From Clostridia bacterium DTU065 (lineage in GTDB: Bacteria; Bacillota; DTU065), in NCBI GenBank assembly GCA_001512545.1, contig LFSI01000083.1, positions 6,759 through 70,758 of the forward strand: DNA of 64,000 nucleotides, in the 5' to 3' direction. The stretch's first letter is position 1. Each line of letters begins with the position of its first letter. The notes below the pieces were generated by a model, which ran no database searches, was not told the DNA's origin, and was given only the letters and a program-made list of their open reading frames with translations. Below are positions 3,190 through 44,659 of this stretch, piece after piece. Position numbers and translations under genes: made by a program.

Positions 3190-4212
3190 ATGTCGGAGAA
3201 AACCATGCGTGGTGTGTATTTTTCAGGAGAAACCAAGGAAGTTGTAATCAAAGACTATCCCATTCCCCAAATCGGTCCGGCACAGGCTTTAGTCAAGGTG
3301 GAGTGTTCGCTAATTTCGGCAGGCACAGAAACCTTCATGATCGATAGCGCTGCAAAGGACGGCAGAAACCTCACCAACTTGGGCTACCAAGCGGTAGGAT
3401 CAATTGTGGAGAAGGGACCTGAGGTACCCTACGATGTAGGTACAAGAGTGGCAGTGTACGGTGGCCCTTACGTTGCCCACCACGAGTATCTGGCGGTACC
3501 GAGAAATCTCATGGTTCCCCTAAAACCGGAGACGGTCTCTGAAGAAGCAGCGTTTGTGGGCCTTGGTGCCATAAGCATCCACGGGCTGAGAGCGGCAAAG
3601 TTGGAGTTTGGCGAAAGCTGCTGGGTGATCGGACTTGGAACCATCGGTCAGCTCACCGCACAGATCGCTGTCAATGCCGGATATCAGGTGATTGCCACCG
3701 ACTTCGATGAAAAGAAGATCGAGCTGGCAAAAAAGGCCGGTGTGGACTTGGCAGGCCACGCTAAAGAGATCGGCGCCGATGCCATCAAGAGTTTTTTGGG
3801 TCAGGGCGTCGATGCAGTGGTGATGACCGCAGGCAGCAGCTCCGAAAGCCTCGTAAACGAGACGCTTAAAGCGCTCAGACCTGGCGGAAGGTACATTATG
3901 GTCGGCGTATCTCCTCTCAACATCAACAGGGAGATCATGTTCCAGCTAGAAAGTGAAGTTATGGTAACAAGGGCAGGCGGTCCGGGCCGGTACGATCGCC
4001 AGTACGAGCTGCACGGGACCGACTATCCGCTGCAGTACGTTCGCTGGACTGAAGGAAGGAATATGCAGGAGTTCATCAGGCTCTTGGAAAAGGGGAGAAT
4101 CAGCACCAAGGAACTGATTACCCACAGATATCACTTCGAAGATGCCGCAAAGGCCTACGAGATGATCCAAAGCGGCAAGGAAGAGTATATCGGAGTCATA
4201 CTGACATATTGA
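3190..4212 (+). CDS. medium-chain dehydrogenase/reductase (zinc-type alcohol dehydrogenase-like) oxidoreductase
   Basis: 340 aa. GroES-like N-terminus followed by a Rossmann GxGxxG (VIGLGTIGQL). aaaggagg SD 7-8 nt upstream of the ATG. Confidence 0.7.
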   Translation: MSEKTMRGVYFSGETKEVVIKDYPIPQIGPAQALVKVECSLISAGTETFMIDSAAKDGRNLTNLGYQAVGSIVEKGPEVPYDVGTRVAVYGGPYVAHHEYLAVPRNLMVPLKPETVSEEAAFVGLGAISIHGLRAAKLEFGESCWVIGLGTIGQLTAQIAVNAGYQVIATDFDEKKIELAKKAGVDLAGHAKEIGADAIKSFLGQGVDAVVMTAGSSSESLVNETLKALRPGGRYIMVGVSPLNINREIMFQLESEVMVTRAGGPGRYDRQYELHGTDYPLQYVRWTEGRNMQEFIRLLEKGRISTKELITHRYHFEDAAKAYEMIQSGKEEYIGVILTY

Positions 4213-6482: not shown

Positions 6483-9400
6483 ATGTCGGAAGTTGACAAG
6501 GCTAAAGAAAAGGCTTTGCAAAGTGCCATCACAGCAATAGAGAAGGATTTCGGCAAAGGCTCGATCATGCGCCTAGGCGAAAACACCGCGATGGATGTAG
6601 AGACCATTCCTACAGGTGCGCTGTCTTTGGACCTGGCACTTGGGGTTGGCGGTCTACCTAGAGGCAGAGTAGTTGAGATCTACGGTCCCGAAAGCTCGGG
6701 AAAAACCACAGTGGCACTGCATGCCATCGCCGAGGCCCAGAAGCTAGGTGGAGTTGCAGCGTTTATTGATGCCGAACACGGTACGACTTGTTGCTAGATC
6801 AAACCCAGCGGCGCTGATCAAAGTCTAGCGGGATCTTTGGTCCTAACTGCATCTTCGAAATGGCTGGGGAAGTGCCAGCCCTGTGACAAGGTTGGGTCAC
6901 ACGCTCTAATACCCCGACGTGCGGCAGTATTTCACTGTGCTGCTGTGCGAAGTTCGGAGAGGTCGGCGAAAATCAGACCTGGAAAGCGGTTAGAGAAGTA
7001 GCCGGGAGTCCATAAAGCTCCTATGACTAAGAACATGAATCCTCGTTGTAAAAGCTCGAAAGGCATCGCAGGTGCGAACAATAAGCCCTGCTCCTTCTTG
7101 TGAGGTTCAGCCTCAGCTGCGTTAAGCGTGTTTAAAGCAGTTGAATTAAACCGTCATAGGTTTTCTGTCTTTGGGCCATCCAACCGTGGGCGCAAAGACG
7201 GCTGACGGGCTAGAGAGGAAGTCTAAGGGAGCCATGCAAGGATAGAAGATGCGGTACAAGTGAACCCCGTCAGAAACTGCTAAGGAGAGTGAACTCCGAT
7301 GGTTCTAAGCAGGAGGAAATGCCTGCTGAAGATGGGGGGCAGCAGCCTGTAGTAGCGATGAAGGGCAGCCGGATGACGGTCCCGGAAACGGGATCGGAGG
7401 GAAAAACTGCCACGAGCGAAGGGGCATAGTCGAAGTAGCTTTTGGTGCTACTTCGATGGAACGCCGCATGCGGGGAAACTCGCACGTGCGGTGTGAAGTG
7501 GGGGAAAAGCGCTTCCTGCGTCCGTAAAACGAACATAGACGCGGAGTGACGCTTACCTATCACTATCATTGAATCCATCCTACGCTAAGAATCTCGGCGT
7601 GGATATCGACAACCTGCTCGTATCTCAGCCGGACACAGGAGAACAAGGTGCGACACGTTTTCGCATAACTGCTCTGTAGCAGGAAAGCGAAGGCAAAGGA
7701 TCGGCCAACTCTTAACCAGATTTGAAAGGTGAAACTCCTTTCCTTAAACCAGGTCCGGGTTTAAGTGTCTAAACCCCTACGTGCAGCGCTTCCTATCGCC
7801 AGGGAGGTTGTGCGAAGCTAGGTAAGGTCGTAATCCGAGTAGCCTAAGGCCAAACGGCTAAGGCGAAAGTGATGCGGGACTCCTTAAAAACGAATCTATG
7901 GTGACGCAGAGGAACCCTCGCCTGAAGCTCAGACAGCTTGTCCGAAAGGCAAGCTCCAGATCAAAAGCTGCGTCTTGTTTGCGGCTTTTGCTTTAACAGA
8001 TAGCTGTTACTGCCTTTAGTGAGTGCGGACCCAATTCACATAAAGGATTTGGCTGAGTAGAGAGGGCACCTAAGGATTCGTAAAACAAGGGATATGGTTA
8101 AGGGAACGTGTGAGGCCCGATAGACGGAGAAGGCGAGGTCAATGAAGTCTATCTGGGAGTCAGCCGTCTCATAGTAGTGATGAATGCCGGGAAACCAGCA
8201 GGAGCGAAGGGGACGAGTCGAAAGGGACGGTACTTATGTCTTTAGTTTACGTCGTCTCATTTAGCCCTTTCGATGGAACGCCGCATGCGGGGAAACCTGC
8301 ACGTGCGGTGTGGAGTGGGGGAAAACGCGGAGCAGAGGCAAAGCGTTACCTATCACTATCACTTGAGATTACAGAGGCTTTGGTACGAAGCGGTGCAGTG
8401 GATATTGTGGTTATCGACTCGGTTGCAGCACTGGTTCCTAGAGCAGAGATCGAAGGCGAGATGGGCGATGCCCACGTCGGCCTGCAAGCACGATTAATGT
8501 CTCAAGCTCTGAGGAAGCTAACAGGCGTAATTGGCAAGACCAAATGCTTGGTTATTTTCATCAACCAGATTCGCGAAAAAGTTGGAGTCATGTTTGGCAA
8601 CCCGGAGGTGCGCTTTGAAGCTTCTCTTTTGTAGAGGCGCCGGGAGTTTCGGTGCCGAAGGCCATGCCCACATGCGAAGCTGCATGAAGCTGGGCGGGAA
8701 TGTGGCGAAAGCTGCTAGCCTCTGATGGACACGGCTACGCGAGGAACCGCTGTTTGAGGTCCGTTGAATGCCAAAAACTTCCCGTTTTCAAGATCTACCC
8801 TCCGGTGTGATCTTGGATGCCCCAAAAGGGCAAGGGACGGACATAGGCGGAGCCTAAATCCATCGTAGAAAGAGCAAAAGAGGGGAACAAAGGAACCTTC
8901 TGCAAGAGCAGAAGGGGCGGAGTTTCCGTAGTAGCAGATAACTGCGAAGGGAAACAGACCGGTCACTCGCAAATAGTAAGGAGGAGATTAAGTGACCTTA
9001 CGAAAGCAGGAGTGGAGGAGCCTGGCAGATGCAGGCAGACTTTACGAAACCATGGCAAGCTTTGAGTTCCTACAAAAATGTGCTAAAGCTCTCAAAATAA
9101 ACGAAAAAACTGCAGCAACTCTTTCTGAGGCGCTGCAGCAAAGGACCTACCGCCCCTTAGGCGGGAACGAAGTAGACACTCTGCTTTTGAAATGTGTCTT
9201 GGACGCGCTTTCAGCGTTGATTAAAGAGGACTCGGGACTGGATCTGTACAGAACTCTAAGGACTCTGGATTTAGCTACCGTACAGATCCAGGTGGAAAAG
9301 CTAGACTTTGCCTGCCTGAAAAAAGAGCTGTTCAAGCTCTTGAAAGAGGCAGTGCCCGACGAAGAATTTGTAGACCTGGTTTGGAAAGGAGCGAAGATCG

Positions 9401-11195
9401 CCGAGGAGGATGTCCTCGAAAAACTCGCTCCGCTTCTCAAACAGAAACATAACGGCGTCCTGATCAGAGGTTGTGAGATGCTGAGTATTTCAGGTGAGAC
9501 AGCACCGGGAAATGGCCGCGATTTTGAGTTTGGGGGATATGCCGTAAAGCTAGAGCCCGACCTCAAGATCCTCCCTGCAAAATCCAGCATTGAAGCCTTT
9601 AAGAGGGATATCAAGAACCTAACAACCAGAAGCAGAGTAGGTTACAGCGTTCGTTTTAGCGCGGTAGAGATCACAAGGAGAATCAGACAGTGGCACGAGA
9701 GCTTTGGTTTTTGCACAGATCGCAAGCTTGGCAGGTATTTGGACAGCTATGTCAGAGAGAGGGTTTACCTCTTGCTTTTGAAAAAGTTTGACAAAGCTGG
9801 CAAGAAAGAAGTCTACCAGCGCTTTATGCTGGGTTATCCAACGCTTGAAGGAGTTACCATTCCTTCAACGCGTCCGGTCGGAGAGCCGTATGCGGGGAAA
9901 CCCGCACGTACGGTTCGGGGAGCGGGAGGCTGATCCCGACTCCACACAACACCAGGCGGAAGAGCACTTAAATTCGTGCGCCCGTAAAAATAGCTGTTGC
10001 GCTATTTGCGGCGTGCTGCAGAATGCTGCAGGAGCAGTCAAGAGACGCCATCCTCTTGTGGACACCAAGCTTACCTGGAAGGGAAACCGGAAGGGGACAA
10101 CAGCATGCTTGGCAAGGCAGGTATCGAGGTTATTCTTCGAGTGCATGCCCTGTCCAGAGATGTACTTTATACGGTCAAGGCTAGACTGCCTGAAACCCAG
10201 GTCGGAGGCCTAAAGTGGGGCTCACACCTTTTGGTGTGATGGAATCACGACGATGTCTTGGAATTTGACATCGGGCTAGATGGTGGGATTCCTCTCGGCT
10301 CGAAAGAGCAAAAGACCGAACGGGTGACCTAAGTAAGGTACGAAAACGTCTGTAGTGCGCTAAACGGGGATTGCCTAAGTCCGAACGCTTAAGTCGCTGG
10401 CTCAAGCTATGGTTTTAGGACCTGAATATCGGATATGGCAACGGAGTTCCCGTAGTAGTCCGAGGCGGTAGGACGGCAAACCGTCCGAACAAGGCATCAT
10501 GCCTCTAGGGAAAGCCCGCCACATGGCGAAGGGGAACAGATTGTCGCATTTCCATAGCATCGGGGTAGGTTAAGTACCTGTCGAGCTCCGAATGATCTGG
10601 AAATGTACAGCTAAAGCGCTGTGTACATCAGCACACAAGTGCTGGACTGATACCCTTTTTACTTAGCAGCTGGACTGTGCTTTAGCCTAGGTTGGACAAT
10701 CGGAGAGCCGTATACATCGAAAGGTGTACGTACGGTTCGGGGGAGGGAAGGAGCAAACCTATTGGGGCAACTCAAAAAGGCGGCTTTTTCCTATCCTACT
10801 ACTCGTCAGTACGCTTGGATATTAGAAGAATTGACTCCATTAAGTCCGGTAATGAAATCATCGGCAACCGCACGAGAGTGAAGGTTGTAAAGAACAAGGT
10901 AGCTCCACCGTTTTTGGTGGCAGAGTTTGATATCATCTACGGAACGGGTATATCTAAGGAAGGCTGCATCTTGGATGTGGCGTCCGATCTGGGAATCGTT
11001 TCCAAGAGCGGCTCGTGGTTTTCCTACGGCGATATGAGACTCGGTCAGGGCAGGGAGAATGCCAAAGAATTTTTGCGGCAGAACCAAGAATTATGCAACG
11101 AGATCGAGAGCAAAGTAAGAGAGAAGGCTTCGCTTCCAGGATACCACGCTCCAGCAGAAGATGATGATGGGGGAAAGGATTATCTAGATGAATGA
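6483..11195 (+). CDS. recA: recombinase RecA, split gene: join(6483..6780,7567..7647,8360..8607,9946..9975,10800..11195)
   Basis: The joined exons are 1053 nt, giving 350 aa plus a stop, in frame across all junctions. Walker [10 protein letters not shown]. Junction contexts are AFIDAEH|[27 protein letters not shown]|[15 protein letters not shown]...VMFGNPE|[10 protein letters not shown]|[15 protein letters not shown], colinear with bacterial RecA. recX overlaps the stop. Confidence 0.9.
6781..7566 (+). mobile_element. group II intron 1 (ORF-less, 786 nt)
   Basis: 5' gtacg. EBS1 candidate cgtgttt (7127-7133) in a hairpin loop pairs with the exon-1 end gaacacg. gtagtag (7349-7355) and gcgaagggg (7416-7424) core motifs. 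D5 acgccgcatgcggggaaactcgcacgtgcggtgt (7461-7494, CGC triad, GAAA loop, 2-nt bulge). 3' end is ttacctatcactat. Confidence 0.85.
7648..8359 (+). mobile_element. group II intron 2 (ORF-less, 712 nt), paralogue of intron 1
   Basis: 5' gtgcg. EBS1 candidate cttgttt (7974-7980) pairs with the exon-2 end gaacaag. gcgaagggg (8204-8212). D5 at 8278-8311 differs from intron 1 only by a shifted wobble pair. Identical 3' end ttacctatcactat. Confidence 0.85.
8608..9945 (+). mobile_element. group II intron 3 (1338 nt, carries degenerate IEP ORF)
   Basis: 5' gtgcg. EBS1 candidate ctccgg (8800-8805) in the loop of the agatc/gatct hairpin pairs with the exon-3 end ccggag. gtagtag (8928-8934) and gcgaaggg (8944-8951). 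D5 gagccgtatgcggggaaacccgcacgtacggttc (9883-9916, AGC triad). D6 ggag-cggga-loop-tcccg-A-ctcc with bulged A at 9939. Ends ...ac. Confidence 0.9.
8992..9933 (+). CDS. group II intron-encoded protein, degenerate RT (no YADD) with retained maturase/X domain
   Basis: GTG start with an aaggagg SD. The maturase-like block is [17 protein letters not shown]...[15 protein letters not shown]...[19 protein letters not shown] remnants are TYRPLGG and [29 protein letters not shown] sits where YADD is expected. There is no En/D domain. The C-terminus [17 protein letters not shown] is D5 read as protein. Confidence 0.75.
   Translation: MTLRKQEWRSLADAGRLYETMASFEFLQKCAKALKINEKTAATLSEALQQRTYRPLGGNEVDTLLLKCVLDALSALIKEDSGLDLYRTLRTLDLATVQIQVEKLDFACLKKELFKLLKEAVPDEEFVDLVWKGAKIAEEDVLEKLAPLLKQKHNGVLIRGCEMLSISGETAPGNGRDFEFGGYAVKLEPDLKILPAKSSIEAFKRDIKNLTTRSRVGYSVRFSAVEITRRIRQWHESFGFCTDRKLGRYLDSYVRERVYLLLLKKFDKAGKKEVYQRFMLGYPTLEGVTIPSTRPVGEPYAGKPARTVRGAGG
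9976..10799 (+). mobile_element. group II intron 4 (ORF-less, 824 nt), paralogue of intron 3
   Basis: 5' gtgcg. EBS1 candidate gaattt (10261-10266) in the loop of the cgatgtc/gacatcg hairpin pairs with the exon-4 end aaattc. gtagtag (10452-10458) and gcgaagggg (10526-10534). Short D4 remnant closed by attgtc/gacaat. D5 gagccgtatacatcgaaaggtgtacgtacggttc (10705-10738). Ends cctatcctac. Confidence 0.85.
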
Positions 11196-14631: not shown

Positions 14632-14648
14632 GTTGAGGAACGGACGCC

Positions 14649-14678
14649 AAAGGGACAGGTAACCATGCCTGTCCCTTT
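14649..14678 (+). terminator. terminator-like hairpin after spoVS
   Basis: aaagggacagg-taaccatg-cctgtcccttt. Weak T tract. Confidence 0.5.
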
Positions 14679-15003
14679 GACATTTTAAAGACTGAGCCAA
14701 GAAAGAAGAACCTTGAGCCTTTGTCCGTAAAAAAGAGGGGCTGCAAACCGCTTCTTGCAAGTGCCGATGACCGCCCTTGTTAAGGATGCGTTTCAAGCAC
14801 CGGAACTGGAGAAGATAATCCAGCAGACGGATGTAGCTGCGTTGCACGCAAAAGCAGCGCATTTTTACTGCGGAGAACCCCTAGCTTTTTTGCAGATCGG
14901 GCACAAATTATGCAAAATCGCCGCAATAAATTAAGGAAATAACCAAAACACGGAGAATAGGTAGGTAGGAGGAAAAATCCCACAAGAAGGAGAGGTTCAA
15001 ACC

Positions 15004-44581: not shown

Positions 44582-44659
44582 CGGGCTGTGGCGCAGCTTG
44601 GCTAGCGCGCTTCCTTGGGGTGGAAGAGGTCGCTGGTTCAAATCCAGTCAGCCCGACCA
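44582..44659 (+). tRNA. tRNA-Pro (anticodon GGG), CCA encoded
   Basis: Cloverleaf by hand. Acceptor cgggctg/cagcccg, D arm gcgc...gcgc, anticodon stem cttcc/ggaag with loop ttGGGgt, T arm gctgg-ttcaaat-ccagt, discriminator A plus CCA. Confidence 0.9.

Follow-up and report, generated by a model that had tools for sequence, protein, structure and literature searches.

Results and Discussion

A recA gene in five exons

The window analyzed here is a stretch of 64,000 nucleotides from Clostridia bacterium DTU065 (Bacillota; assembly GCA_001512545.1, contig LFSI01000083.1, positions 6,759 to 70,758 of the forward strand), and all coordinates below refer to it unless another contig is named. Its recA gene lies on the forward strand between 6483 and 11195, where four group II introns divide the coding sequence into five exons. 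Joining 6483..6780, 7567..7647, 8360..8607, 9946..9975 and 10800..11195 gives 1053 nt that stay in frame and encode 350 residues; the joined gene carries neither a frameshift nor an internal stop and has nothing of a pseudogene about it. Exon 1 encodes residues 1–99 and the first base of Ala100, exon 2 residues 100–126, exon 3 residues 127–209, exon 4, a micro-exon of 30 nt, residues 210–219, and exon 5 residues 220–350 with the stop codon. An alanine codon is split g|ca at the first two junctions. The exon limits follow from the in-frame join and recur in the intron-less contigs described below (the end of exon 1 in L101–L106), and exons 1 and 5 are additionally supported by Pfam. The joined product covers positions 1–262 of the 262 in the Pfam RecA profile (PF00154, E 5.7e-144), is matched by RecA_C as well, and aligns without gaps to RecA structures in the PDB, including that of E. 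coli.

A previous inspection of the letters and their open reading frames (ORFs), hereafter the sequence-only reading, had proposed these five exons, the two split alanine codons and an end-to-end match of the product to RecA, and each of these proposals holds. It also anticipated that automated annotation would fragment the locus, and gene callers do split recA into pieces. No second recA was seen within the 64-kb window.

Coding exons separate all four introns, the shortest being the 30-nt exon 4, so the locus is not a twintron. Exon 4 recurs in a related contig, L099. Coding micro-exons of 30–31 nt between two group II introns were observed at 9946–9975 of the window and at 4139–4169 of L094, a second relative. 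Both contain the full intron-binding sites IBS1 and IBS2 of the downstream intron, and the order of splicing may therefore matter.

Boundaries and ribozyme anatomy of the four introns

Introns 1 to 4 occupy 6781..7566, 7648..8359, 8608..9945 and 9976..10799 on the forward strand, with lengths of 786, 712, 1338 and 824 nt (3660 nt in sum). The Rfam model of domains V–VI (RF00029, Intron_gpII; gathering score 40) matches all four on the same strand, at 7459–7566 (56.3 bits), 8276–8359 (57.8 bits), 9881–9945 (69.6 bits) and 10703–10799 (62.2 bits), with E-values from 2e-8 to 1e-11. Each match ends exactly on the last intron base, at the proposed 3′ splice site, and the Rfam scan found no further RF00029 element elsewhere in the window. 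The model of domains I–IV (RF02004, group-II-D1D4-5; gathering score 34.5) matches intron 1 at 6842–7016 with 49.8 bits.

The termini and the catalytic hairpins agree with this assignment. Intron 1 begins GTACG and ends CTAT, and the other three begin GTGCG, with final dinucleotides of AT in introns 1 and 2 and AC in introns 3 and 4; all follow the GUGYG/AY rule, GUACG being a one-base variant. Domain V is in every case a hairpin of 34 nt, capped by a GAAA loop and carrying a 2-nt bulge (7461..7494 in intron 1, 8278–8311 in intron 2), and its distance to the end of the intron is 72, 48, 29 and 61 nt in introns 1 to 4. Domain VI contributes one bulged A per intron (7559, 8352, 9939 and 10793), placed 7–8 nt before the end. 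The domain V triad is AGC in introns 3 and 4, the usual state in most IIA and IIB introns, and CGC in introns 1 and 2. The sequence-only reading had marked the same four segments, with their ends, domain V hairpins and branch-point adenosines, and the covariance models now recover all four of its domain V–VI positions.

Each intron also contains a first exon-binding site (EBS1) of 6–7 bp complementary to the end of its own 5′ exon. A complementarity scan placed EBS1 at 7127..7133 in intron 1 (CGTGTTT, pairing with exon GAACACG), at 7974–7980 in intron 2 (CTTGTTT) and at 10261–10267 in intron 4 (GAATTTG); in intron 3 it is CTCCGG at 8800–8805. The second site, EBS2, is clear in introns 1 and 3, where the candidates are GGCATC at 7062–7067, pairing with exon GATGCC, and TGCCAAA at 8769–8775. 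Taken with the covarying helices described below, the domain V–VI matches, the domain I–IV match in intron 1 (with a near-threshold one in intron 2) and the EBS1–IBS1 pairings identify all four intervening sequences as genuine group II introns.

Intron 3 encodes a putative maturase without a reverse transcriptase active site

Introns 1, 2 and 4 contain no ORF, as had been read from the sequence. Intron 3 encodes a protein of 313 residues (8992..9933, forward strand) with a GTG start preceded by a conserved Shine–Dalgarno sequence, AAGGAGGAG, at 8978–8986. Pfam detects only the maturase domain GIIM in this protein (27.7 bits against a cut-off of 23) and no reverse transcriptase (RT) domain. When a profile of its eight homologues was compared with the PDB, the group II RT/maturase 7uim_D was matched over RT7 and the thumb only (residues 267–361). 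The AlphaFold2 model of the protein (pLDDT 81, pTM 0.73) nevertheless retrieves group II intron RTs as the only significant Foldseek matches (8t2r_D, 7uim_D, 7k9y_A, 6ar1 and 6me0_C; probability 1.0), in alignments that span its whole length with TM-scores of 0.4–0.47. An hhalign comparison with six full-length RTs is likewise colinear from RT0 to the thumb (probability 99%, E 9e-18), and aligns YRPL with RT0, GGNE.D with RT1/2, KIDL with RT3, APLLK with RT4 and F.GY with RT7. In the same alignment the position of the catalytic YADD motif is occupied by LIR-G, which has no aspartates, and the aspartate of RT3 is not conserved.

The loss of YADD and the restriction of the Pfam match to GIIM led us to reject the reading of this ORF as a reverse transcriptase. 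The RT palm with YADD that marks a mobile retroelement is absent from the protein, and the remaining three introns have no ORF at all. Purifying selection acts on both halves of the gene (omega 0.1–0.3), which, with YADD lost, suggests a protein that is functional yet unable to polymerize. These comparisons and the model indicate that the 313-residue protein is a miniaturized, RT-dead maturase, a colinear descendant of a group II RT in which the thumb/X domain is kept. The last ~19–20 codons of the ORF (9877–9933) are translated domains V–VI; they are near-invariant across species and are modeled with pLDDT below 50, and we attribute their conservation to a constraint on the RNA, not on the protein.

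Homologues of this protein form only eight clusters among 5.8 billion proteins, and a profile search run exhaustively over 1.84 billion representatives returned no further full-length relatives. Seven of the eight clusters could be traced to contigs, and all seven lie in recA. One cluster member carries the NCBI label "hypothetical protein". Purifying selection and presence in every lineage are indirect support for a maturase that promotes the splicing of its own intron or of the others.

Split recA genes persist while intron sites turn over

The contigs of the maturase clusters show that the split gene is not peculiar to the window. Five of the seven traced clusters carry a split recA in the same neighborhood (LigT-recA-recX-rny), and the other two are on short contigs that cover recA only in part and show the same kind of split there. 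Counted by lineage, six relatives have a split recA in the LigT-recA-recX-rny-ymdB-spoVS context. Exon mapping combined with Rfam matches gives exact in-frame junctions in these relatives, and an intact RecA of 348–358 residues in every complete case. The dN/dS of the spliced genes is 0.03–0.09 across lineages, with synonymous sites saturated between the window and the others. Such strong constraint at saturated divergence rules out a decaying gene and implies that the introns must be removed.

Across the lineages six sites in recA hold introns, at residues 99, 126, 169, 199, 209 and 219. The window is occupied at 99/100, 126/127, 209/210 and 219/220 and empty at 169/170 and 199. Contigs L091 and L096, and likewise L092, are occupied at 126/127, 169/170 and 209/210 and empty at 99/100, 199 and 219/220. 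In L094 there is an additional intron at 199, besides those at 126/127, 169/170 and 209/210, and sites 99/100 and 219/220 are empty. L098 retains introns at 169/170 and 209/210 and is empty at 99/100, 126/127, 199 and 219/220. Two contigs are partial: L099 is occupied at 209/210 and 219/220 and empty at 169/170 and 199, with 99/100 and 126/127 beyond its coverage, and L100 is occupied at 199 and 209/210 and empty at 219/220, with 99/100, 126/127 and 169/170 beyond its coverage. Site 209/210, that of the maturase intron, is thus the only one filled in every species examined.

Both inheritance and loss can be read from site 199. Its introns in L094 and L100 are 83% identical, which equals the divergence of their site 209 ribozymes, so this intron looks vertically inherited. 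L092 and its sister L094 are 92–93% identical in their other introns, and L092 is empty at site 199 with a surrounding exon identical to that of L094, pointing to precise loss of the intron in L092. Since the resident protein is RT-dead, the gain and precise loss of introns may depend on an RT from another part of the genome or on homologous exchange of recA alleles between strains.

The sequence-only reading had recommended comparing related recA loci for intron-less alleles. Relatives provided split genes with introns at other sites, and an empty site 199 in L092, and a recA without any of the introns was encountered on eight contigs whose origin is probably RNA. A contig scan with the joined RecA was ranked by best contiguous segment, and for that reason returned only intron-less recA genes from distant taxa. 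One candidate from the contigs, L025, appeared longer than expected and was dismissed as a split gene, being an ordinary recA with a second weak match.

Two ribozyme families

The window introns fall into two ribozyme families, with intron 4 assigned provisionally. Sites 99, 126, 169 and 199 hold the introns of family A, among them introns 1 and 2 of the window. Its members are ORF-less and 575–890 nt long, and share a CGC domain V, the 3′ end ACCTATCRCYAY, domains I–IV of the RF02004 type (32–52 bits overall, 37–52 bits in the orthologues from L091, L092, L094, L096 and L098) and a domain IV reduced to a small hairpin. At three of the four family A sites the alanine codon is split G|CA after a similar exon motif.

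The wider distribution of this ribozyme type points to its origin. When metagenomes were scanned for the domain V pattern of family A, at least 119 loci (L112–L230) were found, from gut and other metagenomes and none of them in recA; 68 of the 119 have an upstream RT ORF, and 14 of 16 tested match RF02004 at 85–182 bits and have the same 3′ ends as family A (ACCTATCRCTAT). These mobile introns share the CGC domain V and the RF02004 domains I–IV with family A, and differ from it in being ~2.7 kb long, RT-encoding and located outside recA. Family A therefore consists of ORF-less, diverged descendants of a widespread mobile class. The CGC triad was also observed to be frequent among RT-bearing RF02004-type metagenome introns generally.

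Family A copies are old, with no recent burst: paralogues at sites 126 and 169 of one species are 62–67% identical, and introns 1 and 2 of the window ~53%. Recent duplication of the four window introns was considered and rejected, as their likeness is confined to domains V–VI. The site 199 intron of L094 (3248–4138, 891 nt) is much longer than its family A relatives owing to an insertion of ~200 nt in domain IV, and it is the poorest fit to the family A consensus (91 of 130 pairs).

Family B consists of the site 209 intron and, provisionally, that of site 219, both with the canonical AGC domain V. Intron 3 is compact, with only ~385 nt upstream of its ORF. Introns 3 and 4 are 81% identical over 43 nt of domain V and 41% over the 5′ 380 nt, the latter being no real similarity; because the likeness is limited to domain V, the placement of intron 4 in family B is tentative.

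Selection on ribozyme structure and exon pairing

The proposed helices are maintained by paired substitutions. In an alignment of nine orthologous and paralogous introns (A1), 98.9% of the cells in the consensus structure are paired, compared with 35–40% in slid-partner controls, and 40 pairs have changed on both sides, against 27.1 ± 2.7 in shuffles, none of 500 of which reached 40. Among twelve family A introns, introns 1 and 2 of the window included, 82 of 130 consensus pairs are compensatory, and canonical pairing is kept at 113 of the 130 in intron 1 and at 118 in intron 2. The 5′ ribozyme part of intron 3, compared across eight species, has compensatory changes at 31 of 116 pairs, with 22 of 928 cells non-canonical. 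For intron 4 the basis for covariation is thin, consisting of one partial orthologue (L099) of 73% identity. RNAalifold also proposed a helix between the 5′ GUGC and the 3′ strand of domain V (helix 1), which we regard as a folding artefact and not as a real helix.

Covariation extends to the pairing of intron with exon. At site 126 the exon reads GAGCAGG and the EBS CCTGCTC in L091, and these are GAACAGG and CCTGTTC in L092 and L094. The EBS1 pairing at site 209 is CCGGAG with CTCCGG in most species and CCAGAG with CTCTGG in L100, while the EBS2 pairing is TTTGGCA with TGCCAAA in most species and TTCGGCA with TGCCG in L091 and L096. The EBS sequences thus covary with synonymous changes in the exons, which indicates selection on the splicing signals themselves.

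Intron-less recA contigs match the predicted spliced transcript

The exact 350-residue joined RecA is present in the protein collection as P0118. It is encoded on eight contigs (among L101–L111) from six Joint Genome Institute (JGI) samples (3300002376, 3300002377, 3300002378, 3300002392, 3300002406 and 3300003306), SRR5185887 and ERR2029738. All four introns are absent from these contigs, exactly at 6780|7567, 7647|8360, 8607|9946 and 9975|10800, and the flanks are 99.9–100% identical to the window. Seven of the eight are 1.5–5 kb long and one is 15.4 kb, spanning 14 genes; the intron-containing form is usually found on contigs of at least 50 kb and up to 2.24 Mb. Most begin within the LigT gene. 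The three longest stop within a span of 12 nt, at window positions 14645–14656, through which the DNA contigs continue. Their ends coincide with the 5′ edge of an 11-bp hairpin, AAAGGGACAGG / CCTGTCCCTTT, at 14649–14679, after the stop codon of spoVS. This hairpin, which a consensus terminator scan of the region misses, probably marks the 3′ terminus of a recA-to-spoVS transcript. JGI has sequenced a project of eight biogas-plant metatranscriptomes (PMC6011919). We infer from these features that the eight contigs are probably spliced mRNA.

The intron-containing arrangement is itself reproducible. The same layout, at 99.8–100% identity to the window, recurs in ten contigs assembled independently (JGI, ENA, NCBI and Logan), which excludes an assembly artefact, and 727 blocks of the public collection of assemblies hold the exon 1 ORF, with its intron-encoded tail, in identical sequence.

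Interpretation and alternatives

Our interpretation, to which we assign a probability of about 0.88, is that this recA is a working gene with four group II introns whose removal at the RNA level is required for the 350-residue RecA. Under this model the recA-recX-rny region would be transcribed, and the maturase would be translated from the unspliced precursor through its own Shine–Dalgarno sequence and GTG start. The protein would then assist the folding of intron 3, and probably aid the other introns as well, and each intron would be excised by the branch-point (lariat) pathway, steered by the pairing of its own EBS1 and EBS2 with the upstream exon. The arrangement would be inherited, with the maturase intron at 209/210 constant and ORF-less introns coming and going at the five other sites.

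Several points weigh against this interpretation. The RF02004 match of intron 2 (7704–7888) scores 32.3 bits, slightly below the gathering score, and domains I–IV of introns 3 and 4 match no Rfam domain I–IV model even at E ≤ 1, so that their full fold relies on covariation for intron 3 and on the single 73%-identical orthologue for intron 4. Self-splicing and dependence on the maturase are predictions from sequence and structure comparison. The search for a second recA or an active RT spans 64 kb of a genome of ~2.2 Mb, and the eight intron-less contigs could be DNA alleles.

The last of these points leads to an alternative in which the introns are real and the eight contigs are DNA of strains that lost all four by retro-processing, splicing itself going unseen. 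That the contigs are RNA is our deduction, one of them runs to 15.4 kb with 14 genes, and precise intron loss does occur in the clade, at site 199 of L092 relative to L094. The same alternative requires the simultaneous loss of four introns in a background that is 99.9–100% identical, in an organism that usually assembles into far longer contigs than the seven of at most 5 kb. It also leaves three contig ends clustered at the post-spoVS hairpin, where DNA assemblies run on, and the six JGI samples form one series, consistent with the metatranscriptome project though no proof of it; we consider it unlikely. Much less probable is a decaying recA pseudogene invaded by retroelements, with RecA supplied by another copy. 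Fragmentation by gene callers, the tendency of most bacterial group II introns to avoid housekeeping genes (PMC4424553) and the limitation of the second-copy search to the window would be in keeping with it. The spliced gene is nonetheless intact in seven lineages at the dN/dS values given above, EBS–IBS pairs follow synonymous exon changes, the ten DNA contigs and the 727 blocks repeat the split form, and exactly spliced contigs exist, with no second recA in the window. The constraint on the gene excludes the pseudogene outcome that the sequence-only reading had named as its own possible undoing. The idea that the layout is an assembly artefact or chimera could draw on the chimeric RecA proteins and the odd contig described at the end of this section, which do exist in the collections. 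It is contradicted by the identical layout in ten independent assemblies and by syntenic relatives with diverged introns of their own, and we give it practically no weight.

The scope of the maturase is a closer question. The ORF-less introns may self-splice or use host factors or an RT/maturase encoded elsewhere, with the 313-residue protein serving its own intron only or having another role. Maturases tend to be specific to the type of intron that encodes them, and introns 1 and 2 are of another ribozyme class than intron 3. In addition, an ORF-less intron of C. tetani self-splices without an intron-encoded protein (PMC4424553). Against this restricted role, no intron other than that of the maturase occurs in all seven lineages, all seven traced clusters of the eight are in recA, no other RT-like ORF occurs in the 64-kb window, and Trichodesmium offers an earlier example of one maturase acting generally on ORF-less introns (PMC12584367). 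A restricted role is accordingly a serious contender, to which we would grant somewhat less than even odds. Somewhat more speculative is our proposal of an organelle-like state within one essential gene: stable, vertically inherited, splicing-only introns of two classes, served in trans by a dedicated, miniaturized RT-dead maturase whose own intron every species retains, with ORF-less introns gained and precisely lost elsewhere in recA, perhaps through recombination after reverse splicing into recA RNA. If this tentative proposal were true, RecA output would hinge on splicing and could be regulated by it.

Relationship to known intron-containing genes

The nearest precedent is dnaN of Trichodesmium erythraeum, which contains four ORF-less group II introns. 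Their splicing is described as being aided by an RT/maturase whose own intron interrupts the gene for ribonucleotide reductase (Meng et al. 2005, according to PMC12584367), and that dnaN is spliced has been demonstrated (PMC4143802). Both dnaN and the recA described here are housekeeping genes of DNA metabolism with four group II introns, mostly ORF-less, and with one intron protein as the likely general maturase. The host of the window is instead a spore-forming member of Bacillota, the gene is recA, and the helper is encoded within recA itself and no longer has an RT active site. Its introns are also diverged and of two ribozyme families, unlike the close copies in dnaN, and they use six sites that differ among relatives.

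A group II intron in the recA of spore-forming Bacillota is known from Geobacillus kaustophilus and G. stearothermophilus, where one RT-encoding intron is reported (Chee and Takami 2005, as cited in PMC4424553 and PMC2504315). It too is apparently intron-like rather than selfish. The contrast lies in the number and content of the introns, a single one with a full RT ORF in Geobacillus and four in the window, of which three lack an ORF and the other encodes an RT-dead protein. These precedents, multiple introns in a Trichodesmium housekeeping gene and a single ORF-containing intron in Geobacillus recA, had been named in the sequence-only reading, and both are documented as far as these sources describe them. 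The recA of the Bacillus cereus group carries a group I intron (PMC2504315); it resembles the present case as a self-splicing intron in a Bacillota recA, inherited vertically once its mobility gene had been lost (PMC2504315), and differs in its ribozyme and in occupying a single site.

In organelles, introns are served by degenerate maturases, MatK among them (PMC4424553). The introns of trnK and other plant organellar genes resemble those of the window in being splicing-only, vertically inherited residents of essential genes, with a protein that keeps the X/thumb region and has lost RT (PMC4424553). The bacterium studied here is by contrast free-living, and its protein is related to MatK only by RT ancestry, retaining vestiges of RT0–RT7 in 313 residues; its action in trans we infer. 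A literature search of incomplete coverage found no prior report of such an arrangement in recA. The combination of four introns in a Bacillota recA, two ribozyme families, an RT-dead helper in the same gene, persistence across species and six alternative sites is novel.

Bacterial group II introns mostly avoid housekeeping genes, forms without an ORF or with a degenerate protein are rare, and non-mobile derivatives are short-lived (PMC4424553). The recA locus departs from all three generalizations, as non-mobile introns and an RT-dead maturase are kept across species. This is the usual condition in chloroplasts and plant mitochondria, and it is also a stage that has been proposed to lie between mobile group II introns and host-dependent ones. 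It could serve as a bacterial system in which to study one maturase serving several introns, the gain and precise loss of ORF-less introns, and splicing as a gate on RecA expression.

Gene neighborhood and anomalous recA records

The gene order around recA is addB-addA, a small acid-soluble spore protein (SASP) gene, LigT, recA, recX, rny, ymdB, spoVS and spoVA, which fits a spore-forming Bacillota bacterium. Apart from the introns, the sole Rfam match in the window is a tRNA gene at 44582–44656.

Analyses based on recA as a marker will miss or mis-score this organism, which is very common in metagenomes, because annotation fragments its recA and calls the maturase hypothetical. Such analyses can also be misled by three RecA "proteins" in the collection, P0119, P0120 and P0121 (488, 455 and 335 residues), which are chimeras of two recA genes joined in conserved segments, and thus assembly artefacts; in P0121, the C-terminal part matches the end of the window's exon 5 exactly. 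Finally, one contig of 2429 nt (L232, from JGI 3300061308) has a truncated maturase ORF, after which exon 1 of recA and LigT come on the other strand; either the assembly is chimeric or the locus is rearranged in this variant.

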